DNA of 64,000 bases from an uncultured Acidobacteriota bacterium (GCA_963770895.1 CAVYRF010000002.1:1312001-1376000); one strand, 5' to 3'; shown: positions 2,294-39,763, counted from the stretch's first letter. Numbers and translations: made by a program. Notes: generated by a model not told the origin, from the letters alone.

Positions 2294-2452
2294 TCAGCAG
2301 CAGAAGCTGACGTTCGTGCCCGAGTGGCAGCGGTAGGTGGCGCCGCCGCCGATCTTGGGGAGCACCGCGGCTTCGAGCTCGCGCAGCGTCTCGCAGTGGA
2401 GGGTGAGCCTGGAGCCTTCCTGGGTCGTGGTGCGCTGCGCAGCTTTCTTCAT
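2294..2452 (-). CDS. Putative RiPP (lanthipeptide-like) precursor peptide, 52 aa
   Basis: AGGAG RBS before ATG at 2452; leader RLTLHCETLREL...IGGG; Ser/Thr/Cys core ATYRCHSGTNVSFCC. Confidence 0.72.
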   Translation of the reverse strand: MKKAAQRTTTQEGSRLTLHCETLRELEAAVLPKIGGGATYRCHSGTNVSFCC

Positions 2453-2725
2453 GGTCTTCTCCTGTCTCCTGTAGTTTCGCCGCGGATCGTCGAGCGGTCG
2501 GCCCGCCGGGCCAACTCTGTCGGCCACCCTCAGTGAAAAGAGTGTGCACGGGATGGGCGGCGAGACAGTCTGGTGAAGGAGAGGAGCGGTCCTCCCTTTA
2601 TCGGAGAAACCTACCAGCAGATCAGGAGAGGCGCGAATAGGGCGGCAGCACAACACAGTCTTGGCACACTACCAACCCGGCGCGCTTTTCACCGCGGGGG
2701 CCTAACGCGCTATCCTTGAGGCGCC

Positions 2726-5308
2726 ATGGCTACGACTGAAGCTGCCGCTGTGTCCGTTCTGGAACCTCCTGCCCAACTCGATACCAAAACGCTGAACGCT
2801 TTCCGCCGCCTGGGCTTCCTGCAGGCGGACCTGGACCCGCTGCGGCGGCTGCGCAGCGAGCCGCAGCCGGCGCTGGAAGAAGAAGCGGATGCGGCCACCG
2901 CGGAATGGGCGCGGCGGCGCTACTGCGGCCCGATCGGCGCGGAATTCATGCACGTGCCGGACCCGACGCGCCGGCGCTGGATCGGCGAACGGATGGAAGC
3001 GGACGCCGACTCCAGCCTGGGCTTCCACCTGGGGACGTCCGAGCGCGACCACGTGCTGGCGCTGATCATGCGCGCCGAAATGTTCGAGCAGCTGGTGCAG
3101 ACCCGGTACCAGGGGAGCAAGCGGTTCTCGATCGAGGGCGTCGCGGCGGTGATTCCGGCGCTCGATGAGATGCTGCGGCAGGCGGCGGCGTTCGCGGCGC
3201 GTCAGGTGGTGCTGGCGATGAGCCACCGCGGCCGGCTGAGCGTGATGGTCAACACCGTGGGCAGGCCGGCGGCGGAGATCTTCGGCGGCTTCGAAGACGT
3301 CGACCCGCGCAGCGTCCTGGGAGGCGGCGACGTCAAGTACCACCAGGGCGCGACCGGCACCTTCCGCGCCCCCAACGGGCGCGAGATCGGCATCCACCTG
3401 GTATCCAACCCCAGCCACCTGGAAGCCGTCGATCCTGTGGCCGTCGGGCGCGTGCGGGCCAAGCAGGTGCGCCTGGGCGACGACGACTGGACGCAGGTCA
3501 TGCCGATCGTCCTGCACGGCGACGCCGCCTTCGCCGGCCAGGGGATTCTGGCCGAAACCCTCAACCTGGCCGAGCTGCCGGGCTACCGCGTCGGCGGCAC
3601 CGTGCACGTCATCGTCAACAACCTGATCGGCTTCACCACCGAGCCGAAGAGCTTCCAGTCGTCGCGCTTCGCGTCCGACATCGCGCGGCGGCTGCCGATC
3701 CCCATCTTTCACGTCAACGGCGAGGACCCCGATGCGGTGGTGCGCGTGGCGGCCCTTGCCGTCGCCTATCGCTACGCCTTCAAGTCGGACGTGGTGGTCG
3801 ACCTGATCGGCTACCGCCGCTGGGGGCACAGCGAAGTCGACGACCCGACGATCACCCAGCCGCTGCTGTACAAGCTGATCGAAGCGCATCCGCCGCTGTG
3901 GAAGATCTACGCCCAGCACATGGGCTTGAGCGACGACGAAGCCGAGCGGCGCATGGCGGTGGTGCGCGCCGAGCTGGACGCGGCGCAGGAAGCCGCCAAG
4001 GGGCTTGCAAAGAAGCCCACCCTGCGCACGCTGCCCGCCTACTGGGACAAGTACAAGGGCGGCCGCCACCTGGAAGCCTACGAGGTGACGACGGGGCTCG
4101 ACCGCGAGCGGCTGCGCCGGCTGACGGCGCCGCTCACCAGCTGGCCGGCTGGTTTTGCCGTGCACAAGAAGATCGAAGCGCTGCTCAAGCAGCGGGCGGA
4201 GATGGGCGAGGGCAAGCGGCCGGTCGACTACGGCATGGCCGAAGCGCTGGCGTTCGCCTCGCTGGTCGACGGCGGGACGCCGGTGCGGCTGGGCGGCCAG
4301 GACAGCCGCCGCGGCACCTTCGCCCAGCGCCACGCCGTGCTGATCGACGTCGAAACCGGCGCCGAGCACACGCCGCTGGCCCACGTCTCGCCCACCCAGG
4401 CGCGCTTCGAAGTCTACGATTCGATGCTGTCCGAGGCCGCCGTGCTGGGCTTCGAGTACGGCTACAGCCGCGACTACCCGGAAACGCTGGTGGCCTGGGA
4501 GGCGCAGTTCGGCGACTTCGCCAACGGCGCCCAGATCATCATCGACCAGTTCATCGCCGCCGGCGAAGACAAATGGGACCTGCTGTCGGGCCTGGTGATG
4601 CTGCTGCCCCACGGCTACGAAGGCCAGGGCCCCGAACATTCCAGCGCCCGCGTCGAGCGCTACCTGCAGCTGGCCGCCGAAGACAACATCCAGGTCTGCC
4701 AGCCGTCGACCGCCGCCCAGTACTTCCACCTGCTGCGCCGTCAGGCGCTGCGCATCTGGCGCAAGCCGCTGGTGGTGCTGACGCCCAAGAGCATGCTGCG
4801 CCATCGCGACTCGTCGTCGCCGATCGACGATCTGTGCCGCGACCGGTTCCAGAACGTCCTGCCCGACACGACGGTGCACGACGCGCAGCGCGTGCTGCTG
4901 TGCACCGGCAAGATCGCCCACGAGCTGCGGCAGGAGCGCACCCGCCGCCAGGACACGACCACCGCCATCGTCACCCTGGAGCAGCTCTACCCGCTGCCCA
5001 AGGCTGAGGTCGTCGCGGCGCTGGCCCAACACCCCAACTGCCACGACCTGGTATGGGTGCAGGAGGAGCCCGCCAACATGGGCGCCCTGTTCCACGTGCG
5101 CCCACGGCTGGAACGCCTGACCGGCCGCCGCCTGCGCTCGGTGCAGCGCCACGCCAGCGGCAGTCCCGCCACCGGCTCCGCCAAGGCCCACCACCTGGAG
5201 CAGCAGACCCTGCTGACCCTGGCCTTCACCATCGGCCTGGACCACGCCGCCGGCGGCGCGCCCGACGCGGCCAAGGCGCCCGACGCGGCCAACTCCGCAG
5301 GCACGTAG
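2726..5308 (+). CDS. sucA: 2-oxoglutarate dehydrogenase E1 component
   Basis: Motifs KRFSIEG, MSHRGRL, GDVKYH, NPSHLE, HGDAAFAGQG (ThDP binding), WEAQFGDF, GPEHSSAR, QEEPANMG. Confidence 0.97.
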   Translation: MATTEAAAVSVLEPPAQLDTKTLNAFRRLGFLQADLDPLRRLRSEPQPALEEEADAATAEWARRRYCGPIGAEFMHVPDPTRRRWIGERMEADADSSLGFHLGTSERDHVLALIMRAEMFEQLVQTRYQGSKRFSIEGVAAVIPALDEMLRQAAAFAARQVVLAMSHRGRLSVMVNTVGRPAAEIFGGFEDVDPRSVLGGGDVKYHQGATGTFRAPNGREIGIHLVSNPSHLEAVDPVAVGRVRAKQVRLGDDDWTQVMPIVLHGDAAFAGQGILAETLNLAELPGYRVGGTVHVIVNNLIGFTTEPKSFQSSRFASDIARRLPIPIFHVNGEDPDAVVRVAALAVAYRYAFKSDVVVDLIGYRRWGHSEVDDPTITQPLLYKLIEAHPPLWKIYAQHMGLSDDEAERRMAVVRAELDAAQEAAKGLAKKPTLRTLPAYWDKYKGGRHLEAYEVTTGLDRERLRRLTAPLTSWPAGFAVHKKIEALLKQRAEMGEGKRPVDYGMAEALAFASLVDGGTPVRLGGQDSRRGTFAQRHAVLIDVETGAEHTPLAHVSPTQARFEVYDSMLSEAAVLGFEYGYSRDYPETLVAWEAQFGDFANGAQIIIDQFIAAGEDKWDLLSGLVMLLPHGYEGQGPEHSSARVERYLQLAAEDNIQVCQPSTAAQYFHLLRRQALRIWRKPLVVLTPKSMLRHRDSSSPIDDLCRDRFQNVLPDTTVHDAQRVLLCTGKIAHELRQERTRRQDTTTAIVTLEQLYPLPKAEVVAALAQHPNCHDLVWVQEEPANMGALFHVRPRLERLTGRRLRSVQRHASGSPATGSAKAHHLEQQTLLTLAFTIGLDHAAGGAPDAAKAPDAANSAGT

Positions 5309-5338
5309 GGGCGGCGGGCACCGCGCCCCCCACGCGGC

Positions 5339-8053
5339 CTATTCGCCGCGCAGGGTGTTGAGGGGATCGACGGCGGCGGCCCTTTGGGCGGGGCCGGCGC
5401 TGGCGCCCAGGCCGACACAGACCAGGACCAGGGTGGCGGCGGCGATGGTGGGGGCGTCCATGGAGTGGACGCCGAAGAGCTGACTTTCCACCAACCGGCC
5501 GAGCAGCCACGAAGCGGGGAGGGCGATGGCGATGCCGCCCACGGCCAGCGCGGCCGCCTCGCGCAGGATGAGGCCCAGGGCGGCGCGGCGCGGCGCGCCC
5601 AGGGCCAGCCGGATGCCGATTTCGCGGGTGCGGCTGGCGGCCGAAAACGAGAGGACGCCGTACAGGCCGATCATCGCCAGCAGGGTCGCCAGCACGGCGA
5701 AGCCGCCGGCCAGCGTGGCCAGCATGCGCTCGTTGGCCAGCATGCGATCCTGCTGGTCGTCCAAGGTGCGCAGCGACAGCACGGCGAGCGCCGGATCGAT
5801 GCGCCGCACGGCGGCGCGGATCAACGGAAAGACCACCGCCCTAGCGCTGCGGGTGCGGACGTAGTAGGTGGCCTCGGAGGCCCTGCCCGCCCACAGCGGG
5901 AAGAACACCTCGGGCTCCGTTTCGCGCAGGTGGTTGTCGTGGAAGTCCCTGACCACGCCGACGATCTCGGTATCCGGGACCGCGTCGGGGCCGTCGCCGA
6001 TTCCCAGCCGGGCGCCGAGCGGTTCTTCCCCCTGAAAATACTGGCGCACAAATTCCTGGTTGACGATCGCCACGTCGGGCGAGCGCAGCTTGCCATCGGC
6101 GCCGTATAGCGCATCCTGATCCTTGAAGTCGCGGCCGCGCACCAGAGGCGCACCCAGGGTGGCGAAGAAGCCTGGGCTGACCGAGTTCATCGGCAGGTCC
6201 TCGGTGACGAAGCGGCGCCGGCCGGCGACGGTCAGCGGGTTGTTCCAGCCGCCGCCGGTCAGCATCTCCCAGCGGGTGGCCCCCGCCAGCTCCACTTCGG
6301 GCAGCGCCTGGATGGCCGCCAGCACCTGCTTTTCGACGGGCTTGGCGCGCGTTTGCTGGTAGCCGCTGCTCTGCGGTTCCAGGCGGAACATCACCAGGTT
6401 GGCGGTCGCGTAGCCGGGTCCCTGCAGGCGCAGCGCACCCAGCGTGCGCACGAAGAGACCGGCGCCGACGAGCAGGATGAGGGCAAGGGCAAACTGGCCG
6501 ACGACCAGCGCCCGGCGCAGGCCGAAGCCGCCGGCGACCGTCGACCAGCGCTGCCTGAGCGCCGACGCCGGCGAGACCGAGGTGGCATACAGGGCCGGCG
6601 CCGCACCCGAAAACAGCGCCGTCAGCACGGTGACCACCAGCGCGAACCCCAGCACGCGCAGATCCAGGTCCGGGCGCAGCGCCATGCTGACGGCGGCCCC
6701 GGTGCCGGTGCCGCCGCCGGCGGCCGGCAGGAAGGTGAGGATGCCGCGGCTGACCAGCGGCGCCAGCAGCAGGCCGGCGCCGCTGCCGAGCACGGCCAGC
6801 ACGCAACTTTCGATCAGCTGCTCGGCAAGGATGCGGCGGCGCCAGGCTCCCAGCGCCACGCGCGTCGCGATCTCCTGGCGGCGGGCCAGCGTCTTGGCGA
6901 GCGACAGGTTGGCAACGTTCAGGCAGGCCAGCAGCAGGATGAGCGCGGTCGCCGCCAGCAGGATCAGGATCGGCTGGCGCATCTGGCGCCGCAGGTCCGA
7001 GCGGCCTTGCGCCGCCGGCAGCAGGTCCAGGGTGGACGCCATGTAGGCCTTCAGCTGCGCCGGCGTCACCGGCGGCCATCCTTCGCGCCGCGTGTCCGCC
7101 GCCAGGTACGACTTGAACCACACCTGCAGGCGCGCCCGCGCCTGGTCCGGCGCGATGCCGGGCCGCAGGCGGCCGAAGACGTGCAGCCAGCGGGTGCGCC
7201 GGTCGAAGAGCCCGTCCCAGCTGGGAGTGGCCTGACGCTTCATCATGATCGGCAGCCACAGCGCCGGCGCGGCACCCCAATCGACGCCGTGGAAGCCCGG
7301 CGCGGCGACGCCGACGACAACCATGGGATGGCTGTTGACCAGCACGCGCCGGCCGGCAACCCGGGGATCGGCGCCCAGGCGGCTGCGCCAGTAGTCGTAG
7401 GACAGGACGACCACGGGTTGGCCGTCCGGCACCAGGTCGTCGCCGTCGTCGAGCAGGCGGCCCAGCGCCGGCCGCACGCCCAGGGTCTTGAAGTACGAGC
7501 CCGAAACCAGCTCGGCGCCGACCGGCTCGGCCTGGCGCCCGGTCGCCAGCTGCACCGGCGCCGGACAGTGCGCGAACATGTCCGAAAAGACGTCGTTCTG
7601 CTGCCGCAGCTCGCGGTAGAACTGGTGCGGGAACAGGTTGTCGGTGCCGACGCCGCCGCCCACAAAAGCGCCGTGCCAATCGAGCAGCACCAGCTGGTCG
7701 GGCCTGGCGACCGGCAGCGCGCGCAGCAGGGCCTGGTCGGCAAGCGAAAAAATCGCCGTGTTGAAGCCGATGCCCAGCGCCAGCGAAACCACGACGATCG
7801 CCGCCGCGACGGGCGCGCCCAGGATCTGCTTGCCGGCATGCCGGACGTCCCGCCGCAGGTGATCGAGCCACATCCAGCGCCCCGCTTCGTAGAAGCGCTC
7901 GCGGCTGCGCGTCACGTTGCCAAAGGCGCGGCGGGCGGCGGCCAGCGCCTGCCGCCGGCTCATCCCATCGGCGACCAGGCGGTCGGCTTCGATCTCGATG
8001 TGGGCCTCGATCTCGCGCTGAAAATCCTCATCGCTGCGCCGCCTTCCCATCAT
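5339..8053 (-). CDS. ABC transporter permease, ADOP-type (duplicated MacB-PCD/FtsX)
   Basis: N-terminal 'EIEAHIE...ARRAFGN' prefix, LALGIGFNTAIFS, LLACLNVANL, RTREIGIRLALGA, terminal DPLNTLRGE. Confidence 0.93.
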   Translation of the reverse strand: MMGRRRSDEDFQREIEAHIEIEADRLVADGMSRRQALAAARRAFGNVTRSRERFYEAGRWMWLDHLRRDVRHAGKQILGAPVAAAIVVVSLALGIGFNTAIFSLADQALLRALPVARPDQLVLLDWHGAFVGGGVGTDNLFPHQFYRELRQQNDVFSDMFAHCPAPVQLATGRQAEPVGAELVSGSYFKTLGVRPALGRLLDDGDDLVPDGQPVVVLSYDYWRSRLGADPRVAGRRVLVNSHPMVVVGVAAPGFHGVDWGAAPALWLPIMMKRQATPSWDGLFDRRTRWLHVFGRLRPGIAPDQARARLQVWFKSYLAADTRREGWPPVTPAQLKAYMASTLDLLPAAQGRSDLRRQMRQPILILLAATALILLLACLNVANLSLAKTLARRQEIATRVALGAWRRRILAEQLIESCVLAVLGSGAGLLLAPLVSRGILTFLPAAGGGTGTGAAVSMALRPDLDLRVLGFALVVTVLTALFSGAAPALYATSVSPASALRQRWSTVAGGFGLRRALVVGQFALALILLVGAGLFVRTLGALRLQGPGYATANLVMFRLEPQSSGYQQTRAKPVEKQVLAAIQALPEVELAGATRWEMLTGGGWNNPLTVAGRRRFVTEDLPMNSVSPGFFATLGAPLVRGRDFKDQDALYGADGKLRSPDVAIVNQEFVRQYFQGEEPLGARLGIGDGPDAVPDTEIVGVVRDFHDNHLRETEPEVFFPLWAGRASEATYYVRTRSARAVVFPLIRAAVRRIDPALAVLSLRTLDDQQDRMLANERMLATLAGGFAVLATLLAMIGLYGVLSFSAASRTREIGIRLALGAPRRAALGLILREAAALAVGGIAIALPASWLLGRLVESQLFGVHSMDAPTIAAATLVLVCVGLGASAGPAQRAAAVDPLNTLRGE

Positions 8054-9566: not shown

Positions 9567-9569
9567 CGC

Positions 9570-26977: not shown

Positions 26978-27044
26978 GCTGGCGCTCCCAAGGGGATTCG
27001 CCGCCCGTCATTAGGGCGGGCTCTCTCCGCCCTCTGCCGCTGTC

Positions 27045-27236
27045 CTAATCCGCCAGGTTGAAGTACCGGCGGATGGCTTCACGGATTAAAGACGCCTCGC
27101 TCGCCCGCCTTTGGTAGGCCGCCTCCCGAAGGGCGGCTTCCTCATCGTCGTGGAGCCAGACGGTCTTTTTCACCTGGCCAGGCTTCCTGGTCGTCTCGCC
27201 GCCGCGCGGCCCGATGCGGTCTTTCTCTTCGGTCAT
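27045..27236 (-). CDS. Ribbon-helix-helix (CopG-like) protein
   Basis: KKTVWLHDDEEAALREAA...SEASLIREAIRRY. Confidence 0.75.
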   Translation of the reverse strand: MTEEKDRIGPRGGETTRKPGQVKKTVWLHDDEEAALREAAYQRRASEASLIREAIRRYFNLAD

Positions 27237-27367
27237 GTCCGGAGGATAGGGCGCGCCGGATTCCTGAAAGCCAGATTGCGTATTGCGGATTCCGTAAGTA
27301 TGGTAATCTCGCTCCTCGCAGCCTTTCCGCTAATCCGTGCCTTACCCCTTGCGAGAGGAGGAGAACC

Positions 27368-28068
27368 ATGCGTTTCGGAGCCCTGTTCTTAGCCCTTACC
27401 CTCATCCTCGCCGTCTCGGCAAATGCCGAACATCTGCCCGCGCAGCCTTGCCGGCATGACGCACGTCCGCACGCCTCCCTACTACCCGCAGTCCAACGGC
27501 AAGATCGAGCGCTGGCACAAGACGCTCAAGACCGATGCTCTGCGGCCCGCGGCCCCCGCTGGCCTCGATCCCGCTCGTGCCACTGTTGCTGACTTCGTCC
27601 ACCACTACAACCACGTCCGGCTTCACAGCGCCATCGGCTACGTCACCCCGGACGCCTTCATGCTCGGGTTGGCGCCGTCCATCTGGGTCGAACGCGATCG
27701 CAAACTCGAGGCCGCGCGGCAAACACGCCGAGAACACCGCGAGGCTGCAAGGACGCACGCCGCTTGACCCCACCACCTCGAACGCTCATGCCTCTGTTAC
27801 GATCGAAACCAGTCGTCCCGTTCACGGTGAACCAGTACAAGTCAAGTTCACCTTCTTCGATCCCTCGAATATCGAGATGATCTTGAAAATCCTCAATGCC
27901 TGCTCGCCACCCTTCAACCACTGGTGGGTCTTCGCTGGGGGCCTTACAAACGTCGGGGTCTCCATTACCGTAACCGACACCGTTGGCCTTTCGGTGAAGA
28001 CCTACAAGAGCACCAAGGGCGCCCTCTTCCAGACTTTCGCCGATACGGCGGCCTTCGATTGTCCGTGA
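27368..28068 (+). pseudogene. Secreted protein gene disrupted by an IS fragment
   Basis: GAGGAG RBS and signal peptide MRFGALFLALTLILAVSANA at 27368; C-terminal domain FFDPSNIEMILKILNAC...WWVFAGGLTNV...DTAAFDCP at about 27841-28068. Confidence 0.6.
27432..27839 (+). mobile_element. IS3/IS481-type transposase 3' fragment with right end
   Basis: rve core YPQSNGKIERWHKTLK...YNHVRLHSAIGYVTP; terminus ...GTGAACCAGTACA; left boundary approximate. Confidence 0.75.
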
Positions 28069-28081
28069 TGTGCAGGAGGAC

Positions 28082-28111
28082 AGAGCCGGCCTTCGGGCCG
28101 GCTCTCTTCTT
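28082..28111 (+). terminator. Intrinsic terminator-like hairpin
   Basis: AGAGCCGGCC-TTCG-GGCCGGCTCT followed by CTTCTT, between convergent genes. Confidence 0.65.
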
Positions 28112-28149
28112 GGCTATTGGCAGATCACCACGGCTAACGACGAGCGTTG

Positions 28150-28434
28150 CTAAGAGCAGGTGAGTTGATTGAGCAGGTTGTCGGTCGGCGTATCGTCGGC
28201 GTATGTGCGCAGATACTTCCCATGAATCCCATTCACCACTCGGATGTACTGCCGGCCGTTCCCGTGCCTAGTGTAGTAGTGCTGTCCATGCTGTTCGATC
28301 GAGGCGATGACCTTCTCGCGAGTGTCTTTCCAGCGCATGCCTTGCCCATTGTCGGGGCCACCGAGATACTCGATACCATAGTGCGGGTCATGGTGATGCG
28401 GACGTTTGATGATGCAGTCTACAAGATAGTCCAT
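28150..28434 (-). CDS. DUF3892-like protein
   Basis: IEYLGG...TREKVIASIE...YYT...KYLRTYADDTPTDNLLNQL pattern. Confidence 0.8.
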   Translation of the reverse strand: MDYLVDCIIKRPHHHDPHYGIEYLGGPDNGQGMRWKDTREKVIASIEQHGQHYYTRHGNGRQYIRVVNGIHGKYLRTYADDTPTDNLLNQLTCS

Positions 28435-28590
28435 AATTTCTCCGTAACAATTTAGAAAGTGTAAGTTGTTGGTGATCCATAGCCATGGCGGGTAATTTTA
28501 CCACGAGGGTATGAAGAGCTAGGCCGGAGAACGTATCCGGCCTCCCCGGCAGGAAAGAGCCTCTCACCGGAGCGCCCGCTCCAGCCCATC

Positions 28591-29802
28591 ATGGCCGGCA
28601 TGCAGGATGTCGCAATCTTTGCTCGAACCACCTGGAGGGGACAGGGGCGCCCATTCGGCATCCGCCGCGCCGACCGCTTGTCGCACCTCTACATGATCGG
28701 CATGACCGGTGTCGGCAAATCGACCCTCTTCGAGACTCTGGTCGGCGAAGACCTGCGGCATGGGGAAGGCTTCGCCCTCCTTGATCCGCACGGCGACCTC
28801 TACGAGTTGATCAAGCACTCGATTCCCCAGGAACGCCAGAGCTCGACCGTCCTCTTCGACGTGCCGAGCCCCTCGCAGCCGATCCGCTTCAATCCTCTAT
28901 CGGGCGTCTCCGCCGCCAAGCGCTCCCTTGCCGTCGCGGGACTTCTCTCGGCCTTCGAGCGCCAGTGGGCCGACTCCTGGGGGGTGCGGATGGAGCATGT
29001 CCTCCGCCATACGCTCTTCGCCCTTCTTGAAGCGGGAGGCATGAGCTTCGCGGACATACCGCGCCTTCTCGAAGATGGCGGCTTCAGGCAGGCTGTCGTC
29101 TCCCGCCTCTCGAACAAGCAGGTCAAGGGCTTCTTCCAAGGGGAGTATGCGAGCTACTCACCTTCGGCACGCGCTCAGGTCATCGGGCCAATCCTCAACA
29201 AGGTGGGGGCCTTCCTGGCCGACCCCACCCTCTACCGCATCTTCTCGTCACCCGAGAGCTCGTTCGACCCGCGACGCTTGATGGACGAAGGCGGCATCCT
29301 CCTGGTCAACCTCTCCAAGGGGCAAATCGGCGAGGGAGTAGCCAACCTTCTTGGCTCACTCCTCGTCGCATCTCTCGGTCTTGCCGGCCTCTCCCGCGCC
29401 GAGCTGCCGGCAGAGAAGCGTCGGCCGTTCTTCGTCTACCTGGATGAGTTCCAGACTTTCGCCTCGCTCTCCCTGGCCGGCATGCTATCGGAGTTGCGCA
29501 AGTACGGCGTCGGCCTGGTGCTCGCCAACCAATATTTGGGCCAGCTTCCGCCGGAGATTCGCGAGGCTGTCCTCGGGAACGTCGGCAGCCTGATTGCCTT
29601 CCGCGTCGGGGCGGCCGATGCGCCTCTCTTGGCTCGGGAGTTCTCGCCGGTCTTCGGCGTGGAGGATTTGCTTCGCCTGCCCAATCACTCTATCTACGTG
29701 AAGCTCATGGTGGACGGAGCGCTGTCGCGGCCCTTCTCGGCGGAGACCCTCGCGCCGGCTACTCGCCGATCTCAAGGTACTGGCGCAAGGCCCGGCGGAT
29801 GA
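28591..29802 (+). CDS. TraD/TrwB-like coupling-protein ATPase
   Basis: HLYMIGMTGVGKST Walker A, DPHGD, YLDEFQ Walker B, SELRKYG, LANQY, LGNVGS. Confidence 0.88.
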   Translation: MAGMQDVAIFARTTWRGQGRPFGIRRADRLSHLYMIGMTGVGKSTLFETLVGEDLRHGEGFALLDPHGDLYELIKHSIPQERQSSTVLFDVPSPSQPIRFNPLSGVSAAKRSLAVAGLLSAFERQWADSWGVRMEHVLRHTLFALLEAGGMSFADIPRLLEDGGFRQAVVSRLSNKQVKGFFQGEYASYSPSARAQVIGPILNKVGAFLADPTLYRIFSSPESSFDPRRLMDEGGILLVNLSKGQIGEGVANLLGSLLVASLGLAGLSRAELPAEKRRPFFVYLDEFQTFASLSLAGMLSELRKYGVGLVLANQYLGQLPPEIREAVLGNVGSLIAFRVGAADAPLLAREFSPVFGVEDLLRLPNHSIYVKLMVDGALSRPFSAETLAPATRRSQGTGARPGG

Positions 29803-29947
29803 CCTCGGCCTTGGAGCAGCGGTCGCGCGCGGCCCGCTTGGCAAGGGCCGCTTCTTCGTCCTCGTAGAGGTACGCCTGTTCCCGAAACATGCTGCCGGGC
29901 TTGCGCCGCCGGTCGGATGGCATGCCTTCCTGTCTCGCCGCCGCCAT
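29759..29947 (-). CDS. Ribbon-helix-helix (CopG-like) protein
   Basis: YLYEDEEAALAKRA...SKAEVIRRALRQYL; paralogue of 27045-27236. Confidence 0.72.
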   Translation of the reverse strand: MAAARQEGMPSDRRRKPGSMFREQAYLYEDEEAALAKRAARDRCSKAEVIRRALRQYLEIGE

Positions 29948-29995
29948 GGTCGAAGCGTAGACGAGGGCAGTACCGGTGTGATACAGGTACTATAC

Positions 29996-30322
29996 ATGTA
30001 CTCTACCGGTAATGGCGAACAGAGCGCCTGGCCGATCGACCGGGTGCAGGCCGCCCTTGGAGAAGTGGCCTGGCTCCTTCGGACGATTCAGGACGTACTC
30101 TCCGCGGTCTACCGCAACATGCCGCGTCCCGCCGACCTCGCGGACCGCGAAGAGCACCGGTTGCCGTACGACATTGCAACCGACATCCTCGGAACCCTGG
30201 AGGGCACGCTCGACGAAGACCTGCCGGCACTGATCCGCCGGCTGGAGCGATCGGCCCAGATCACGAACGAAGAATTGGCGGAAGAGTTCCGCAAATGGAA
30301 GGAGCACAATCATGGTTTCTAA
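29996..30322 (+). CDS. Hypothetical protein
   Basis: ORF overlapping the radC start; start uncertain (29978 or 29996). Confidence 0.55.
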   Translation: MYSTGNGEQSAWPIDRVQAALGEVAWLLRTIQDVLSAVYRNMPRPADLADREEHRLPYDIATDILGTLEGTLDEDLPALIRRLERSAQITNEELAEEFRKWKEHNHGF

Positions 30323-30974
30323 AGACAACGGAATCGCCTCTCGGCTCTATCGCGCGGGGGCCGTGGCCCTCTCCGATTCCGAACTCCTCTCGGTACTTCT
30401 TTCGGCAGGCAAACCGGACGAGGCCACGCTTCGCCGCTCAAAGGAGTGCCTCTCCAACCTCGGGGGCATCGGCATCGTGCCGGCCGCTTCCCGCGGCATG
30501 CTGCGAGCGGCCGGACTCGGAGAGCCGGAGTCATCGGTTGCCCTCTGCCTCTCGGAGGTTGCCTGCCGCATGGCAAAGGCCAAGCTTGCCAAGTACGTCC
30601 GCTTCAAAGAGCCGATCGATGTCGTCCACTATCTGAAGCTCCGCTACGGGCAGATCGGCCAGGAAGTGTTGGGCGGTCTCTTTCTCACCAGCCGCAATCG
30701 CCTCATCGCCGATCGGGAGCTCTACCGCGGCACCCTCTCGCGCATTGACGCCGAGCCGCGGGAGGTGCTTCGGCAGAGTCTCATCCTTGGCGCGGCGCGG
30801 GTCGTCCTTTTCCATAACCATCCATCGGGCGACCCCACCCCGAGCCCTGGCGACAGAGCCTTTACGGTGCGCCTGCGCAGGGCGGCAGAGATGATGGGCG
30901 TTGATCTCTTCGACCATTTCATCCTGGGTGCGGGCGGGCGATGGACGTCGCTTCGCCTCATTATGAAGTGGTGA
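30312..30974 (+). CDS. radC: RadC-like JAB domain protein
   Basis: ALSDSELLSVLL N-terminus; QE...PREV...HNHPSGDPTPSPGD...DHFI. Confidence 0.92.
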   Translation: MVSKDNGIASRLYRAGAVALSDSELLSVLLSAGKPDEATLRRSKECLSNLGGIGIVPAASRGMLRAAGLGEPESSVALCLSEVACRMAKAKLAKYVRFKEPIDVVHYLKLRYGQIGQEVLGGLFLTSRNRLIADRELYRGTLSRIDAEPREVLRQSLILGAARVVLFHNHPSGDPTPSPGDRAFTVRLRRAAEMMGVDLFDHFILGAGGRWTSLRLIMKW

Positions 30975-30977
30975 GCC

Positions 30978-31277
30978 ATGCCGCAATTCGATGACGATAC
31001 GGCGGAAGCGCGAAGCCTCCTCGAAACGCTTATCTCCCTTTCCGGATTGACCAAGGTTGAAATCCAGCGGCGCATCTCGGAAGGAGAGCGGCATTTCGAC
31101 TTGTCGAACGTCCTCAGGGGACGGCAGGATCTGAAGGTGATGCACATCGCGGCCATCTGCGGGGCCTTGGGCATCTACGTAGCGGAATTCCTGCGCATGG
31201 CATATCCCGACCCGACGGAGCCGAGCCGATTCCAAACGCGCATTGAGACACTGCTTGGCAGGGGGGCGAGGGGGTAG
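30978..31277 (+). CDS. XRE-like HTH protein
   Basis: GLTKVEIQRRI...LSNVLRGRQDLKVMHIAAICGALG. Confidence 0.65.
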   Translation: MPQFDDDTAEARSLLETLISLSGLTKVEIQRRISEGERHFDLSNVLRGRQDLKVMHIAAICGALGIYVAEFLRMAYPDPTEPSRFQTRIETLLGRGARG

Positions 31278-31407
31278 CGCCGATCCTGCCACTCCGGCAC
31301 TTTTGCCATCCTTTTTCTCTCTTCTCCTCGGGCGCATTGTGGGACGCAGAGAAGTTCTTCTGCAACAACTCACAACCGCCGGCCACGCCGGCAAAGGAGA
31401 AGAGACC

Positions 31408-32358
31408 ATGACCGCATCGACCATCACCCGCGCATCCAAAGAGTGGTTCCGCCGTCCGGCAGATGAGCGCTACCTGTCCCTCGCCGATTTGCGGAAGGCC
31501 ACCCACGAGCGCGCAAGGATCTCCCGAAGCAAGGTCATCATGAGTACGAGCCTCTACGCCGAGGGGGAGAGCGCGGCCGAAGGCTCCCTGTGGCTCCATC
31601 ATCGGGACATTGGCACTCTCTCCCTTACGGACTGGTCTCTCGGCCAGCTCGCCACCATTTCCCGCACACCAGCCCGCTGGCTTCGGGATGTCGCCCAGGT
31701 TCCGGCCGGCCCGATCCTCGCGGCCAATGCTCTGAACCTCGGACTCCGCTACCTCGCGGGGTGCGGTGAGAATCAGATGCTCACTCTTGACCACGGCGAG
31801 GAAGCGCCCAAGGAGCTTCGCGCCCTGGTCGGGAGAGACTACGGCCGCATCTACGACCATGAGGTTGTCGCCCTGGTCGAGGAAGTGGCCGCCGACCGCT
31901 GGCACATTCCGGCGGCAAGCTACCAGGCCCGCGATCCGCTCCGTGCGACAACCCTCTACGCCTCCGACCGCGATGTCTTCATCTTCCTGGTGGACGAGAA
32001 GAATCCGGTTGAAGTCCGCATCGGATCGGACGTGCGCCACCTCTTCCGCGGCTTCATGGTCTGGAACAGCGAGGTCGGCCACCACCGCTTAGGCATCCTC
32101 ACCTTCCTCTACGATTTCGTCTGCGACAACCGCATGGTGCACGGCGCGCGGGAGGTGAAGGAGCTCTCCATCCGCCACACCAAGAACGGCCCGTACCGCT
32201 TCGCGAGGGAGGCGCGCCCCATGCTTCAGGCTTACGCCGAGGCGTCGGTCTCCCAAGTCGAGAGCGAACTTCAGCGGGCAACCGAAACAATGGCGGGACG
32301 GCGCTCGCGCGGTCGATCCCGCATGCGGACCAGCGGGTTTCCTTCGAGCGCAAGGTGA
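31408..32358 (+). CDS. DUF932-like protein, possibly C-terminally truncated
   Basis: WFRRPADERYLSL, YGRIYDHEV, LYASDRDVFIFLVD, FRGFMVWNSEVG, VCDNRMV, IRH; AAGGAG RBS. Confidence 0.82.
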   Translation: MTASTITRASKEWFRRPADERYLSLADLRKATHERARISRSKVIMSTSLYAEGESAAEGSLWLHHRDIGTLSLTDWSLGQLATISRTPARWLRDVAQVPAGPILAANALNLGLRYLAGCGENQMLTLDHGEEAPKELRALVGRDYGRIYDHEVVALVEEVAADRWHIPAASYQARDPLRATTLYASDRDVFIFLVDEKNPVEVRIGSDVRHLFRGFMVWNSEVGHHRLGILTFLYDFVCDNRMVHGAREVKELSIRHTKNGPYRFAREARPMLQAYAEASVSQVESELQRATETMAGRRSRGRSRMRTSGFPSSAR

Positions 32359-32387
32359 GTTCGTTGCTCCGGGCTGCATAGCCCAAG

Positions 32388-32414
32388 AGCCCCTCCACTG
32401 GAGGGGCTTGTCTT
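32388..32414 (+). terminator. Terminator-like hairpin
   Basis: AGCCCCTCC-ACT-GGAGGGGCT followed by TGTCTT. Confidence 0.5.
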
Positions 32415-32506
32415 GTGGTAACATGGCGGTAACGGCGCACAAGAAACCAATAAAGTGGGGGCGCACACTACAAGCTATCTGAGCAGACTCTTTTGGAGAA
32501 GTACCA

Positions 32507-32938
32507 ATGGATGACATGGGTAACACATTGCAGAATGCTCGCCGGAGTTGGGACGAGCCATGGGGATGGTTCACATTTGAAGAGGGTAACCGGGTCATAC
32601 ATCTGCTTCTCCGGCGCAGCGATCCCGTTGCCCAGAGGCTAGACGAGGCTCGGCATCGAGGTGAACCTTTAGGAGGCAAATACTCCGCCCGCCTGGACCC
32701 TCCCCACACCCCGATGGGTCAACAGCACCTGCACCTCTTCGCCAATGGCAATCAACTCTGCGCCTTGAATGTAGACGGCACGGCTCACGACCGAAGCCAT
32801 AGCGTCCAAATCCCTCGGAGGGCTGCAGCAGGGATTACTAGGCGCTTTCCGCAGTTCCTCCTACCCTCGGACAATCTAATCGAGGCTTTTGATGTGAGAT
32901 CCGCAGATGACGTCAAAGCGCTCCTCGAATCGCTCTAA
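32507..32938 (+). CDS. Hypothetical protein with HxH...NxDGxxHD motif (DUF6367-like)
   Basis: RLDPPHTPMGQQHLHLF...LNVDGTAHD; GGAG RBS. Confidence 0.6.
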   Translation: MDDMGNTLQNARRSWDEPWGWFTFEEGNRVIHLLLRRSDPVAQRLDEARHRGEPLGGKYSARLDPPHTPMGQQHLHLFANGNQLCALNVDGTAHDRSHSVQIPRRAAAGITRRFPQFLLPSDNLIEAFDVRSADDVKALLESL

Positions 32939-34622
32939 GCGGCGGCCGAATGCTCCGAGAAAGGCGCAGCAAGTGCGACAGAGAAAGACAGCTCCATCTA
33001 CAGCACCTCCGGCAGCTCATAACGCGGGAGTGGTTTGGACGCCGACCTGGCTTGCCTCTTTAAGTGAAGCTGATCTCCGCACACAGGTGCTCATACCGTT
33101 GTTTGAGGCAATGGGCTATCAAGGGGTTTACCACCATCACGGCGGAGCGTCCGAACTCGGCAAAGACCTCGTCATGTGGAAGGATGACCCAGCCATCGGC
33201 CGCTCCTATTATGGCGTGGTTGCCAAAGCCGGTGACATAAAAGGTGGCGTGACATCATCAGCCATACAGACAGTACTAATTCAGATTCGCCAAAGCTTTG
33301 GCAAACCGTACACAGACCCTCATTCGGGCGAGGAAAGAGCCATCACAACATGCTTTGTGGTCACATCGGCAGGCTTTCCAAAGGAGGCCCGGGATAGCAT
33401 TCGCGCAGACCTGGGCGACGCACATAGGCATGTAACATTTCACGATGGCGCATCACTTTGGAAATTGGTGGAGACTTATCTCTCAGGCAGATTGCTGCCT
33501 CACTACCTTGAGTCGGCGGCCAAGCTTCTTAACGACACTCATCCTGACTGGGCAATTGATGTTCATATAGTTGGTCGAGATATCTCACTCGAGCTGGCGC
33601 CAAAGACCCCCGACGCGCCACCCCTTGCTTGGTCGTTAGTCCCGCGCTTTCCGAACACGCAAGAAGGTCTGGCCGCAAAAGAAGCGTACAAAGAACATCT
33701 CGCCGTTGGCTCCGAGGTAACGCTTGACGGCTCCATGATCGAACGCTTCACCGCGCCTGAGTTTCTCCAACACTTGCACCCACACCCGATCACATCTCTA
33801 ACACTCTTTACCCGCTTTATTCTTCCAAAACCGCTAGTCGTTAATTTTGTCATTCAGTCGCGAGATAGTGCGCAGGTGTTCGAAATATCAGGAATCACCC
33901 TATCTACAGGTCAGCGCGGAGAACTGGAGACCAGCATAAATAATGAATCTCAATATACGCCCTTCAGGTTCAGGCTTCGCTTCCCGAAAAGCGGGAACGG
34001 CAGTTTTTCGCTCAGATTCGACCTGGATGGGCACAATATATATCGCCTCTGGCAAGCCATTCAAGCACTGACCCTCCTGGCCACAGGCGCGGACATCTTC
34101 TTCGTCGACGCAGAGACCGGTCGACACCTTCTCGGTGGACAGCCGGAAACTGATTTTAAGGCGCCATCTGAAGAGTTCGCCGCAAGCGTTGGAAAACTAC
34201 TAACCATTCAAGAGTTGACTGCTACTAACTTTCAGATTCCAGACCATAGTCCCACCGCGGATGAACTCTTAGAAGTTGAGTATGCCTATATTGCGCTTAC
34301 AGTGGGGCACTGCCCCGTAACAGAACTCGGCCTTTCGGTACCAGCCAAGGATGCACAGAACATTCTGGTCTCCCACGAGAAAGAGGGCGCCACTTTTTTG
34401 ATGTCACAAGAGGACAGAGTAATATCGGTTTTTGGGCAAGAAATACATCTCGGCCCCGTGGAAGTAAGGTGCAAAAGAGCGACAATCCATCCCGACGACC
34501 TGCCGGCGCTGACTAGCAACACAAACGACGATGAGAATATCCTCTTTAGGATGATTCCTCTTGGGAGCGAAGCCATGGAAGCGTTTTTTCTGAATTGGCC
34601 CAAGCCGGGACACAACCCCTGA
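32907..34622 (+). CDS. Restriction-endonuclease-like (Mrr-type PD-(D/E)xK) N-terminal domain protein
   Basis: SEADLRTQVLIPLFEAMGY...ELGKDLV...VVAKAGD; low GC; uncharacterised C-terminal region. Confidence 0.72.
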   Translation: MTSKRSSNRSKRRPNAPRKAQQVRQRKTAPSTAPPAAHNAGVVWTPTWLASLSEADLRTQVLIPLFEAMGYQGVYHHHGGASELGKDLVMWKDDPAIGRSYYGVVAKAGDIKGGVTSSAIQTVLIQIRQSFGKPYTDPHSGEERAITTCFVVTSAGFPKEARDSIRADLGDAHRHVTFHDGASLWKLVETYLSGRLLPHYLESAAKLLNDTHPDWAIDVHIVGRDISLELAPKTPDAPPLAWSLVPRFPNTQEGLAAKEAYKEHLAVGSEVTLDGSMIERFTAPEFLQHLHPHPITSLTLFTRFILPKPLVVNFVIQSRDSAQVFEISGITLSTGQRGELETSINNESQYTPFRFRLRFPKSGNGSFSLRFDLDGHNIYRLWQAIQALTLLATGADIFFVDAETGRHLLGGQPETDFKAPSEEFAASVGKLLTIQELTATNFQIPDHSPTADELLEVEYAYIALTVGHCPVTELGLSVPAKDAQNILVSHEKEGATFLMSQEDRVISVFGQEIHLGPVEVRCKRATIHPDDLPALTSNTNDDENILFRMIPLGSEAMEAFFLNWPKPGHNP

Positions 34623-35057
34623 ATCGTTGCGCACGGTTTCGCAAGCAAGAACAGCCCCACACGTTTCTGTGCAGGGCTATTCTGCACCAGCTGTCTCGCC
34701 TTTACGGATTGTCCTCAAGCTCCAGGAGCTTGGCGATCATTCTTTGTGCATTGGCCCCTGACCGAGAGTCCTCTCGTTGTGGGTCACGCAAAGCAACAGA
34801 CAGCCAATTTGCAATGACCTGGTAGCGCTTCGACAGCTTAACCTCAACGTTTTTCCGAAGTACGGTGCAGTTCGAAACGACTTCCGCGACGAGAAGGCGC
34901 TTTTCCTCCGGCAGCGCCATCTCGTAGCTTTAACAGAGCGCTCTTTGCCAGTTCGAAAAACTCGCCGAGGCGTTTTGGGGCCGGCCTTTCGGCGTCATCC
35001 CTCTGGGCTGTTTTCTGGTCAAGGAGCGAGCGCTGCTCTTCGAGGAGTCCGAGCTTG

Positions 35058-36126
35058 TGCGGATTCCGGCGAAGGCGACCACCTGTTCCGACGCAAGGCG
35101 ACCAGTCTGGTCGGAGCGAAGCGACGAAGAGGCTCAGGTTGGGTTCAAGGTAGTACCTCGCCGTAGCCCGTCTTTCCGCTGAAATCCAAATCTGGCAGGG
35201 TTGTGCTCCGAGAGGAGGACGACCATGGACGAGTTGGCACGGCGGTTTCGCCATCAGGTTCCCCTTGGTCGGGCGCCTTTCCTCCATCCCCTCCGCCGGT
35301 TGGTGAGCATCGGTCGCTTCCACCGTAGGCCTCCCCTTGTCTGTTTCCGGCGTTTCCGCCTTCGTGCCCGCATAGGGTCGGCCATAGCCGCGTTTCCTCC
35401 ACTCTCGCTCGTTGTTCGGGGACTTCGTAGGTAGTACGCGCCCGTCTGACTTCCCGAGTCTGTTCATCGCTGGCTTCTGTCCGTAGACTTCCCAGCACGA
35501 CCCGTGGCACCATCTGCCCAGGGTGGACCCGGGATCTCCCGGTTCTCGCGTGAGATGGTTCTGTACATGCTCGAGGCCTCTGACCACGCGGGGTCCGTGC
35601 CCTTCTTGCCATACCGAAGGACCCGATGTTGCCTTCCGCCCGAGAGAACGGCGTCGGCACCCCGGACGACAAGCTTTTCGAGGCTCAATACTCGGCCTGT
35701 ACATACCCCTGTCAACGCTTCACGCCCGGCCTCACGACCGTCCGTGCATGACTCGGGGCCAGCATGGCTGGCTATGCCTTTGCTGTACGGCTCTTCCATC
35801 CGCTCCACCTCACCGGTTTATCCCGGCGCACTCTCTCGAATCTTCCTCATGCTCACTCTCCGTGCTGGCATCTCGACTCCTGATCGTCAAACGACCAGGA
35901 TGCCAGAGGTTTGTGAGCCCCTCCAAACGCTTATCGCGCATGCACTTACGGCGCATCGCGACCGGCATTCCGGGGAAGGCGACCACCCTTCCGGGCTTGG
36001 CGACCACTCTTCCGGCGGTCACACCAAAACCGGTCGTCTTCCCGTCGGAATCACTGGTCGCCTTCCGCCCGGAACGGTGGTCGCCTTCGACCCGGAATCG
36101 GTGGTCGCCTTCGACCGGATTACGCA
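35058..36126 (-). mobile_element. IS21-family element, internally deleted
   Basis: Termini TGCGGATTCCGG / CCGGATTACGCA; 8-bp target duplication CGAGCTTG (35050-35057, 36127-36134); multiple GAAGGCGACCA subterminal repeats; IstA-like start MPARRVSMRKIRE at 35871. Confidence 0.85.
35255..35831 (-). ncRNA. Group II intron 5' fragment (domains I-III; RT ORF and DV/DVI lost)
   Basis: Starts GTGCG at 35831 inside istA codon 14. Intron-typical text GATGGAAGAGCCGTACAGCAAAGG...GGCCCCGAGTCATGC...GAAGCGTTGACAGGGG...GGGAAGTCAGACGGGCGCGTACTACCTACGAAG. Downstream boundary approximate. Confidence 0.82.
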
Positions 36127-36812
36127 CGAGCTTGCGGCCTTCGAAGATTTCTTTCTCGATCGTGCCGTCAAGGAAGGCATCGGTGAGGCGCATGAGACGG
36201 CTCTCGACCAGCCCTTTTCGGCAAGCGCGAGAGAAAGGCTATCCAGGGTGAAGGCACCGGTTGCGTATGCTTCGAATGCCCATCTGATGAGCGGCCCATG
36301 TACCGGATCGATCTCCTTGGCCTTGCCTCTGCCGCGGTCGAGATAGCCGAGCGGAGCTTTCAGCGGATAGAGCCCCTGCTTCAGGCGGCCGTAGAATCCC
36401 TTGATGGTCTCTTCCCGAAGATTGCGGATGTAGTCCACGGCGACAACGGCCTGCACGTCGGCGGCCAGGCGGTCGTCGCGCGTCTCGATCCTGCGGTTCT
36501 CGCTTGCAATGTGGATCTCTACGCCCTCATCCATGAGGTCGTTCATGTCTGCCCAATCGAAGAAGTTCCGCGCACTGCGGTCTATCTTGTGGACGATCAC
36601 CCCTGCCGCGCCGGCTTTCCGGCGCTCGCGAAGCATCCGCTCGAAGACTCGCCGGCCGCGCTTTGCGGCCGTGACCTGATCCTCGTACCAGCGGTCAACA
36701 GCGAGATTATGCCGTCGAGCGTACTGCTCGATCGCGGTTCGCTGCTCTTGAAGCGAGACGCCTGTCTGCCCCTGCTTGGGCGTCGATACGCGTATATAGC
36801 CAAAGTAATGCT

Positions 36813-37049
36813 TCATGGCTTTTCATATTGATTTGTAAACGACCTTTCTGCGGCCATGGTAGGTTCTGAAGCGTCCGTTGTCAAAGCGCGAAGGGCGGCA
36901 AGGCGCTCGGGATCTGCCTCAATCGCCTCATATATTGTGAGGACGATCGCCAAATACCGCACCAATCCTTCGACGGCACTGTCTGTGTCTTCTCCCAGGA
37001 CAGGACTCAAGCGCTGTCGCAACTCGCGGAGCGCCTCGGTTTCTTTTGA

Positions 37050-37061
<12 letters not shown>
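36813..37061 (-). CDS. Hypothetical protein upstream of the serine recombinase
   Basis: ATGA overlap with the recombinase start; 82 aa, predicted helical. Confidence 0.55.
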
Positions 37062-38440
<1,379 letters not shown>

Positions 38441-38505: not shown

Positions 38506-39042
38506 TGAGACGCCGTCTCCGACCTGGGCTTCTCGCATGGTGCCGGCGTCCCCCTTGTGCCGATCCGAATTGGCGTGGCGAAACCCGCCCTCGGGGGACA
38601 CCGGCGGGGCGCTTGCTCCCAGCGTCCGCGACGGGCGCCGGCAGGGGTTCGCGCGTCCCGAAGGATTGCCGGGCGCCCGATCTACGGCCGGCCCAACGCG
38701 AACACCGCGGTCGCGAGCCGGGCGCCCCGCACTTGCTTGCGGACAAGCCGGCCTGGCTTCGGCGCCCGCCTCAACCGTGGGGAGGAAGCCCCCCGCCGAG
38801 GTCCCCGCGAGTCAGCAACTCCGCCTCCTTCCGCAACGCCGCCGCGGGGACCTCGGCGTAAAGGATTTGAGACTCCCTCTCCCACCTGGTCTTCTCGAAG
38901 GGGTGCCGGCGTCCCCCTTGTGCCGATCCGAATCGGCGTGGCGAAACCCGCCCTCGGGGGACACCGGCGGGGTGCTTGCTCCCAGCGTCCGCGACGGGCG
39001 CCGGCAGGGGTTCGCGCGCCCAGAAGAATTGCCGGGCGCCCG
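38506..39042. repeat. Two ~174-bp near-identical direct repeats with an intervening hairpin
   Basis: Copies at 38506-38679 and 38868-39042; spacer contains the inverted pair CGCCGAGGTCCCCGCG / CGCGGGGACCTCGGCG. Confidence 0.88.
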
Positions 39043-39123: not shown

Positions 39124-39181
39124 TAGAATCGCCGCGGGCCTCCGGACCTCATCCGGCAGGCGGATGCCGGATGAGGTCCGG
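39124..39181 (+). promoter_or_regulatory. -10-like box and perfect 17-bp 5'-UTR hairpin upstream of a peptide gene
   Basis: TAGAAT (39124-39129); CCGGACCTCATCCGGCA-GGCGGA-TGCCGGATGAGGTCCGG (39142-39181); then AAGGAG. Confidence 0.6.
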
Positions 39182-39196
39182 CAAAGGAGAGCGAAC

Positions 39197-39382
39197 ATGC
39201 GCAAGAGTGCTCGGAAGTTCCGGCTGCATCGTGAATCGCTGCGCCGGCTGGATCCGGCGGCCTTGGGGCAGATGGTCGGCGGCATCAAGGCCACCGGGGT
39301 TCCGACCGCCTGCGACGCGGCATCGGGGTGTGCTTACAGTCTTTGTCGCAACTACCTTTCCGTCTGTAACAACCTCTGCTGA
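39197..39382 (+). CDS. Putative RiPP (lanthipeptide-like) precursor peptide, 61 aa
   Basis: AAGGAG RBS; leader KFRLHRESLRRL...MVGG; core with 5 Cys and several Ser/Thr. Confidence 0.8.
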   Translation: MRKSARKFRLHRESLRRLDPAALGQMVGGIKATGVPTACDAASGCAYSLCRNYLSVCNNLC

Positions 39383-39571
39383 TCGACGCCCCTGCGGGCG
39401 CGCCCGCCGCTTCGCCGCAGGGCGAGCGGCTGGGCCAGGGCGCCGGCGTTGCCGCGCCGGGCGGGGCGGCAACGCCGGGCGTCCATCCAGCAGCGACAGC
39501 TACGGCGGCCGGCGGCGCGGCAGGTCAGCGTGCGGCGCCACCGGCGCAACGGTCACAGCCGGCCCGCCGGC

Positions 39572-39763
39572 TCAAGCGTTGGTGACCGGCTCGGGGCAGG
39601 GCTTCTGGGTGAACTGCGGGCACCAGGCGGGCGTCGACGGGCAGCCGTCGACGACGGACGGGTTGGTGGTGGTGATGACGGCGCCGCCCGCCGGCAGGCG
39701 GAGATCGGCGGCCACATGCAGGCAGCGGAGGGTTTCACGGCTGAGATTGAGCTTCTTTTTCAT
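39572..39763 (-). CDS. Putative RiPP (lanthipeptide-like) precursor peptide, 63 aa
   Basis: AAGGGAG RBS; leader KLNLSRETLRCL...PAGG; Thr/Ser/Pro-rich core with 3 Cys. Confidence 0.78.
   Translation of the reverse strand: MKKKLNLSRETLRCLHVAADLRLPAGGAVITTTNPSVVDGCPSTPAWCPQFTQKPCPEPVTNA

Follow-up and report, generated by a model that had tools for sequence, protein, structure and literature searches.

A dispersed family of putative class I lanthipeptide precursors, probably matured in trans, in an uncultured Acidobacteriota bacterium

Class I lanthipeptide precursors (LanAs) carrying the leader motif LxLxKx5L are known from Bacteroidetes where, according to the accessible part of Walker et al. 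(2020, BMC Genomics, PMC7268733), the leader often ends in Gly-Gly and a C39 protease is encoded in the cluster; they include the Bacteroidetes pinensin family and correspond to the NCBI model NF038153 ("class I lanthipeptide", lant_leader_L1a, cut-off of 22 bits). The prochlorosins and synechococsins of marine picocyanobacteria (ProcA/ProcM and SyncA/SyncM) are class II systems in which many precursors with a conserved Nif11-type leader and hypervariable cores are served by one LanM; in the available portions of that literature many of these precursors lie far from the single synthetase, and so were missed by cluster-based mining, and 79 precursors are quoted for SyncM in the accessible part of a review (PMC12328550). 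The tha and the clusters (LanM plus GMC oxidoreductase) of Thermoanaerobaculia encode Cys-rich cores after a GG site, and a GMC enzyme makes thiazoles in these peptides made on ribosomes and modified after translation (RiPPs), as given in the accessible text of the original report (Nature 2026, PMC13083261). The TIGR04149 (GG_sam_targ_CFB) peptides have a short Lys-rich N-terminus, a Leu-rich leader and a GG site. Here we analyzed a 64,000-nucleotide stretch of DNA (hereafter the window) from an uncultured Acidobacteriota bacterium (GCA_963770895.1, CAVYRF010000002.1:1312001-1376000, that is positions 1312001-1376000 of contig C2 of our genome G000, which comprises 8.16 Mb at 70.7% GC in three contigs) and describe three small open reading frames (ORFs) in it. 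We consider it probable that these ORFs are LanA genes belonging to a class I lanthipeptide library of about 97 genes at 86 loci, served in trans by one enzyme set. Judging from its nearest LanB-bearing relatives, the host appears to belong to the class Thermoanaerobaculia.

The three ORFs were recovered on the minus, plus and minus strands at the positions given by a first-pass annotation of the window, and each has an ATG start, the leader motif and a GG cut site. Precursor 1 (2294..2452, minus strand, 52 amino acids, E-value of 6.4e-7 with the family hidden Markov model (HMM) described below) has the leader MKKAAQRTTTQEGSRLTLHCETLRELEAAVLPKIGGG and the core ATYRCHSGTNVSFCC; precursor 2 (39197..39382, plus strand, 61 amino acids, E-value of 5.9e-12) has the leader MRKSARKFRLHRESLRRLDPAALGQMVGG and the core IKATGVPTACDAASGCAYSLCRNYLSVCNNLC; and precursor 3 (39572..39763, minus strand, 63 amino acids, E-value of 1.2e-8) has the leader MKKKLNLSRETLRCLHVAADLRLPAGG and the core AVITTTNPSVVDGCPSTPAWCPQFTQKPCPEPVTNA. 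The ribosome-binding sites, which had been called good, are Shine-Dalgarno (SD) sequences located 6-7 nt before the ATGs: GGAG for precursor 1 (2459..2462, minus strand, 6 nt upstream, position derived from the 20 nt 5' of the start), AAGGAG for precursor 2 (39184..39189, plus strand) and GGGAG for precursor 3 (39770..39774, minus strand), the last two read from the upstream sequence. Precursor 2 also has an in-frame ATG at 39164, which lacks an SD. The LxLx motifs of the three leaders (RLTLHCETLREL, KFRLHRESLRRL and KLNLSRETLRCL) lie 8, 9 and 10 residues before the GG and the cores differ, both as originally quoted. Pfam and NCBIfam searches with the three peptides returned nothing useful, NF038153 giving no match at E<=10.

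We searched the whole genome for further members. A loose regular expression applied to the six-frame translation gave 54 matches, mostly small ORFs of the same build, and a leader HMM (37 seeds, one iteration) run on 119,748 six-frame segments gave 98 segments at E<=0.1, including 93 at E<=1e-3. After dropping one match without a start codon (C2:1993446), the dispersed family that the first-pass annotation had proposed from three genes numbers 97 ORFs; the same HMM yielded 0 matches at E<=1 in a reversed-genome decoy of 167,774 segments. Each of the three contigs carries some of these ORFs, which fall into 86 loci: 78 hold a single gene, 6 a pair and 2 a triplet. Their pooled GC content at third codon positions (GC3) is 0.83, versus 0.88 in called genes, the two remaining frames giving 0.53-0.54, and an SD-like motif at -18..-4 is present in 87/96, versus 450/1499 background genes, whose starts are only approximate. 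The 70 nt downstream of family genes fold more stably than the background (mean of -33.0 versus -28.2 kcal/mol, Mann-Whitney p of 6e-7), matching the expectation for small stand-alone transcription units. A sigma-54 pattern was rejected as a shared promoter, being found in 1/96 upstream regions versus 29/1499 in the background.

It has to be weighed whether most copies are decaying, unexpressed relics of former clusters, and we regard this as very improbable. Precursors 2 and 3 border an integrated element, precursor 1 neighbors an insertion sequence (IS) transposase, precursors were not found at the syntenic site upstream of the transketolase orthologue in three related genomes (G003, G008 and G002), and the match at C2:1993446 has no start codon, all of which would fit decay. 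The 97 ORFs are intact, however, with the SD-like motifs and coding GC3 signal given above, and host-family relatives keep the genes as well: 20 of the 24 genomes of the host family (f1) carry the precursor family, with up to 56 copies in relatives. Two public metagenome proteins, 93% and 72% identical to precursor 2, are orthologues of it in which the core Cys pattern is mostly or partly preserved, and the same-genus genome G001 encodes a further one, where that pattern is largely retained; a word-indexed homologue search with a single sequence returned 2 proteins only. This full or partial retention of the Cys pattern indicates that individual cores are conserved between species. At the class level the family is present in 14 of 151 genomes, in large numbers only in the host family and one neighboring family; in a third family, nine genomes carry 1-2 copies each.

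Across the family, the leader averages 29 residues with the consensus MKKxxxKLxLxRETLRxLxxxxLxxAAGG, in which L, E, T and L each reach at least 90% in the alignments. A cut site could be assigned in 96 of the 97 peptides (GG 58, AG 25, GA 7, AA 5 and GN 1). The cores (median of 26 residues) cannot be aligned with one another except at their Cys columns and comprise 16.4% Cys (0.9% in the proteome), 15.1% Thr and 8.3% Ser; 93/96 have at least 2 Cys, with a modal count of 4, and 40 end in Cys. As read from its motif, L-x-L-x-[K/R]-E-T-L-R-x-L, the leader is of the LxLxKx5L...GG class I lanthipeptide type, a likeness that the first-pass annotation had pointed out and that is borne out by the LanB, LanC and peptidase-containing ATP-binding transporter (PCAT) genes found in cis in relatives (below). 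The peptides had also been called orphans, which stands for their genomic position and falls for their leader type, already known. With the LxLxKx5L class I LanAs, as far as the accessible descriptions go, they share the leader motif, the GG-type site and Cys/Ser/Thr cores, and the cluster-linked relatives of the family likewise have LanB, LanC and C39 exporter partners. They differ in that Arg mostly replaces the motif Lys, that AG, GA or AA replace GG in 38/96 (including the single GN), that the host phylum is Acidobacteriota instead of Bacteroidetes, and that there are 97 copies at 86 loci, none of them adjoining LanB or PCAT, with the enzymes split over two loci. No Pfam or NCBIfam match to Nif11 or NHLP was obtained among the peptides tested. 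A profile search of public proteins gave 715 relatives at E<=1e-3; of the 120 listed, the majority go by "hypothetical protein", six are called "natural product precursor" and one is called "class I lanthipeptide", and PF28317 is precomputed on 8.

A small sub-branch has the leader ...R[IL]xKETLLPLxSR (C1:1579906-1580058, C2:2709152-2709301, C2:5020187-5020345 and C1:652841-652984, with C1 another contig of the same genome). Three of its cores contain 0-1 Cys and there are several His; C1:1579906 has neither Cys nor GG site. Stand-alone LanC-like genes (C1:1580170-1581435 and C2:2707677-2709035) are the immediate upstream neighbors of two of the four genes.

A GG leader of this build might instead be read by another enzyme class, that is by a radical SAM enzyme, as happens with GG leaders of the TIGR04149 type, by a GMC oxidoreductase or by some unknown enzyme, and we judge this unlikely. 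TIGR04149 matched 3 of 38 peptides of the host genome, always below threshold (up to 14.8 bits, cut-off of 25), and the likeness extends to the short Lys-rich N-terminus, the Leu-rich leader and the GG site; yet no precursor is found within 5 kb of any of the five SPASM loci or of the one YcaO locus. A GMC oxidoreductase gene (C2:4968422-4970200, minus strand) is located 217 bp downstream of the precursor C2:4970417-4970578. In G181 (locus L191, C552), an orthologue of this enzyme with 74% identity adjoins a family precursor too, one with a different core and orientation. Only 2/6 GMC genes lie within ~2 kb of a precursor, however, and the C2:4968422-4970200 enzyme is 27% identical to the TheO candidate, so that GMC-like or similar enzymes more likely tailor some members than replace LanB. 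The resemblance to the tha and the clusters, which occur in the same class as the host and also have Cys-rich cores after a GG site, stops at the leader: the TheA candidate (L192:8645-8893) has a class II-type leader that the family HMM does not detect, and adjoins its own LanM and GMC genes. G181, the genome of locus L099, has 33 family members; dispersed class I precursors are not mentioned in the accessible text of PMC13083261.

We then asked which enzymes could serve the precursors. In agreement with the first-pass annotation, genome-wide profile searches found no LanB, LanC, LanM (DUF4135), C39, SPASM or YcaO within the window, and Pfam returned none of them on the 32 called window genes, the gene calling having skipped most of the low-GC stretch at 26-38 kb. 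Outside the window, where it had looked to synthetases and PCATs to be located, the genome encodes a single full-length LanB (1177 amino acids, C2:5180050-5183583, minus strand, Lant_dehydr_N at 550 bits plus Lant_dehydr_C), which stands among housekeeping genes and is convergent with a LanC (536 amino acids, C2:5178405-5180015, plus strand), and a single locus combining HlyD, PCAT and LanC (C2:2967235-2974784, with HlyD and the C39 exporter at C2:2970256-2974784). Further genes encode an N-domain-only LanB-like protein, two LanM, two kinase-LanC proteins and nine stand-alone LanC-like proteins. Four of these nine LanC-like genes lie <300 bp from a precursor, a number that 0 of 2000 random placements reached.

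Predicted as a complex with precursor 2, LanB residues 1-800 scored 0.59, versus 0.00 for the best of 3 controls, with the verdict "weak support". The pass mark used is reached by 58/80 solved complexes and 2/110 mismatched pairs, and passes at <=0.60 comprise just 7 of the 80 solved complexes plus both mismatches that passed; partner pLDDT was at least 39 and runs agreed on at least 33% of contacts. As a NisB-leader complex has been solved, this pass may reflect likeness only.

The link between leader and LanB emerges from relatives. Three genomes from the host's order but from other families, G027 (with two clusters), G030 and G040, have the same leader in clusters arranged as HlyD - PCAT - one to six precursors - LanC - LanB, and NF038153 passes its cut-off on cluster-linked relatives there (36.8 bits in G027 and 23.0 bits in G030). 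The host LanB is 46-55% identical to these cluster-linked enzymes, its PCAT 58-63% and its HlyD 36% (blastp against six-frame segments). We also ran a LanB alignment search with one genome per species, yielding 532 relatives, of which the best 80 were retained and 45 of these 80 had at least 5 kb on both flanks. Among the 28 loci with a LanB 40-55% identical to that of the host, a family precursor lies within 5 kb in 15, a PCAT in 16 and a LanC in 24; this group includes Holophagales, Gemmatimonadota, Myxococcus/Corallococcus, Blastococcus/Modestobacter, Paenibacillus and Phycisphaerae. Among the 17 loci at >=55% identity, all from metagenome-assembled genomes of Thermoanaerobaculia/Acidobacteriota, the corresponding counts are 4, 2 and 13. 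From these counts, the leader appears to accompany LanB across phyla, and the sparse linkage in the closer group suggests that in the host lineage the LanB-LanC pair has become uncoupled from precursors and exporter.

Some linked loci have unusual contents. In the six-precursor cluster of G027 (L093:6778-10863, C7), the LanB has 1361 amino acids with an N-terminal extension of ~270-330 residues without a Pfam match, and no LanC was called in the locus. In Blastococcus (L144:8217-8471) and Modestobacter (L152:3414-3668), the same leader at LanB/LanC/PCAT loci precedes cores that have a single Cys and consist of Lys-Asp repeats or of runs of His/Arg/Asp, which would be unusual substrates for a lanthipeptide pathway.

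Co-occurrence was assessed in 41 genomes, comprising that of the host and others from its genus, family and order, which are kin, so that the counts are non-independent. Three or more copies were present in 22 of the 41, with up to at least 83 copies scored, and a LanB scoring >=280 bits was present in 20 of these 22, versus 1 of the 16 genomes with zero copies. In G024 the LanB orthologue is in ~10 frame-shifted pieces, reflecting either a pseudogene or an error-prone assembly.

The same genomes bear on the possibility that a class II synthetase (LanM), and not LanB and LanC, matures the family in the manner of prochlorosins, which we find improbable. The genome does have two LanM genes, and LanM was detected (E<=1e-10) in 17/22 precursor-rich genomes; it was not found at that threshold, however, in five precursor-bearing genomes, namely G008 (85% complete), G018 (100%), G022 (94%), G027 (98%) and G040 (96%). 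The second LanM adjoins a precursor of its own whose leader is class II-type, a type seen nowhere else in the genome, and published Thermoanaerobaculia LanM clusters, in so far as their accessible descriptions tell, use a class II-type leader too, whereas the cis linkage of the family leader in relatives is to LanB.

A second alternative keeps the exporter and dispenses with lanthionine: the products could be unmodified or disulfide-bonded double-glycine peptides, of bacteriocin or signal type, cleaved and exported by PCAT. The GG-type leader, the PCAT/HlyD orthologue in the genome and the Cys-rich cores agree with it, as does the lack of an adjacent modifying enzyme at most copies. We nevertheless give it little credence, since disulfide bonding leaves unexplained the excess of Ser and Thr (23% of cores together, and at least as numerous as Cys in 94/96), and equally the co-occurrence with LanB, the LanB and LanC in cis in relatives and the LanC-like genes abutting precursors.

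Several observations weigh against a class I library served in trans. NF038153 gave 27 weak matches on 38 copies of the host genome, the best at 19.7 bits and 0 passing, and it is because of these sub-threshold scores that the family copies are unannotated. With 0-1 core Cys, the KETLLPL peptides cannot form ordinary multi-ring lanthipeptides. The precursor nearest to LanB is 17.7 kb away and the one nearest to PCAT 48 kb, so that the link between leader and enzymes rests on homology and on co-occurrence in kin genomes; the precursor C2:4304002-4304220 is 3.5 kb from a LanM (C2:4307702-4310992), and an ABC transporter separates the two. The 96 upstream regions yielded no common promoter motif, their enriched 7-mers being ribosome-binding sites only. 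Among the genomes compared, G029 has a 477-bit LanB and 0 copies, G002 (94% complete) a 580-bit LanB and a single copy, and G005 (84% complete, 56 copies) a LanB of 228 bits plus a 74-bit fragment at a contig end. The hint of transcription for the family consists of a single RNA-library contig, a 151-nt sequence from one soil metatranscriptome run identical to 39636-39786 and covering the 5' part of precursor 3, and this hint is weak because RNA libraries can contain DNA. DNA sequencing runs contain parts of the window (shares of 0.24-0.48), with no run spanning it whole.

On balance, the family scan together with enzyme homology and linkage supports in silico the library modified in trans that had been proposed. 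Under the class I reading, whose every step is drawn from homology and gene linkage, each precursor gene would be transcribed singly, with a strong ribosome-binding site, and the common leader LxLx[RK]ETLxxL would dock the peptide on the single full-length LanB. LanB would dehydrate the variable core's Ser and Thr by glutamyl-tRNA-dependent glutamylation followed by elimination, and LanC cyclases (the one convergent with LanB, the one beside the exporter and several stand-alone paralogues adjoining individual precursors) would add core Cys thiols to the dehydro residues, forming thioether rings. The C39-peptidase ABC exporter with HlyD would then cleave after GG/AG and export the peptide. One enzyme set would thereby act in trans on many unrelated cores, as a class I equivalent of the prochlorosin system. 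Both systems have many precursors with a conserved leader and hypervariable cores; the present one differs in its class I leader and in that LanM was not found in 5/22 carriers, and its count is 97 versus the 79 quoted for SyncM.

Around the precursors, the window shows signs of mobile DNA. An ISAzo13-family DDE transposase gene (948-2180, minus strand, 477 bits) is separated by 114 bp from precursor 1's stop codon. The stretch at ~26000-38400 has a GC content of 56-63% versus ~70%. Genes for a phage-type integrase and a TrwB-like coupling protein lie in it together with an rve integrase-core fragment, and we take it as a probable mobile element that has integrated and that stops shortly before precursors 2 and 3. 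Between the integrase gene (37050-38405) and precursor 2 are two 141-nt direct repeats (38539-38679 and 38902-39042), 96% identical and 363 nt apart, with long imperfect inverted repeats inside, which could be attachment-site or repetitive extragenic palindromic (REP)-like elements. A perfect 17-bp hairpin (39142..39181, plus strand) ends 2 nt 5' of the precursor 2 ribosome-binding site; its inverted repeat is 100% complementary and folds at -46.1 kcal/mol (z of -6.9, 0/200 shuffles equally stable), and it may be a 5' stabilizer, an operator or an upstream terminator. We rejected a 5' hairpin as a family-wide feature, since just 2/96 upstream regions reach <= -40 kcal/mol. A GC-rich hairpin between the convergent precursors 2 and 3 (39443..39478, no strand assigned, inverted repeat with 17-nt arms, 94% complementary) folds on both strands (z of -3.0 and -2.6), lacks a T-run and is likely a two-way terminator or stabilizer.

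An ADOP-type MacB/FtsX permease (5339..8053, minus strand, Pfam MacB_PCD and FtsX, TIGR03434 at 801.6 bits) is encoded 2.9 kb from precursor 1 and is a possible companion of it, for export or immunity. Genome-wide, 6 of ~48 full-length ADOP (TIGR03434) permeases lie within 300 bp of a precursor, versus 1.76 expected under a lenient null. We rejected the ADOP permease as an obligate partner: the enrichment is modest only, with 20/2000 random placements reaching 6, and the 5339..8053 copy is not among the six. A first clustering of neighboring genes placed sigma-54 activators, ABC transporters and giant proteins each near 9-12 precursors. The giant ORFs comprise nine related sequences of 637-7598 amino acids within 5 kb of 12 precursors (for example C2:1950600-1970984, C2:2132211-2142758 and C1:2197139-2207821).

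A literature search, its coverage lying largely outside subscription journals, returned no description of a dispersed class I library in Acidobacteriota or Thermoanaerobaculia. The RiPP class and the leader type are already known, and what appears new is the scale, the dispersal, the division of the enzyme genes between two loci, the predicted class I chemistry and the host lineage. More speculatively, and with somewhat less than even confidence, we propose that this soil Thermoanaerobaculia lineage may hold a natural lanthipeptide library that is larger than any seen so far and the first to use class I enzymes, in which one LanB would accept ~100 unrelated cores, paralogous stand-alone LanCs would set the ring topology of particular members, and some orphan ADOP permeases would be dedicated exporters or immunity proteins.

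Class I enzymes are those of the nisin type, much used in peptide engineering. If one LanB/LanC set does mature ~100 cores, this would amount to a class I system with natural promiscuity, the record quoted for a single synthetase being the 79 substrates of the class II enzyme SyncM. Cluster-based mining and NCBI's model overlook almost all of the peptide diversity described here, and an uncultured and abundant soil lineage would constitute a large reservoir of unexplored ring peptides.

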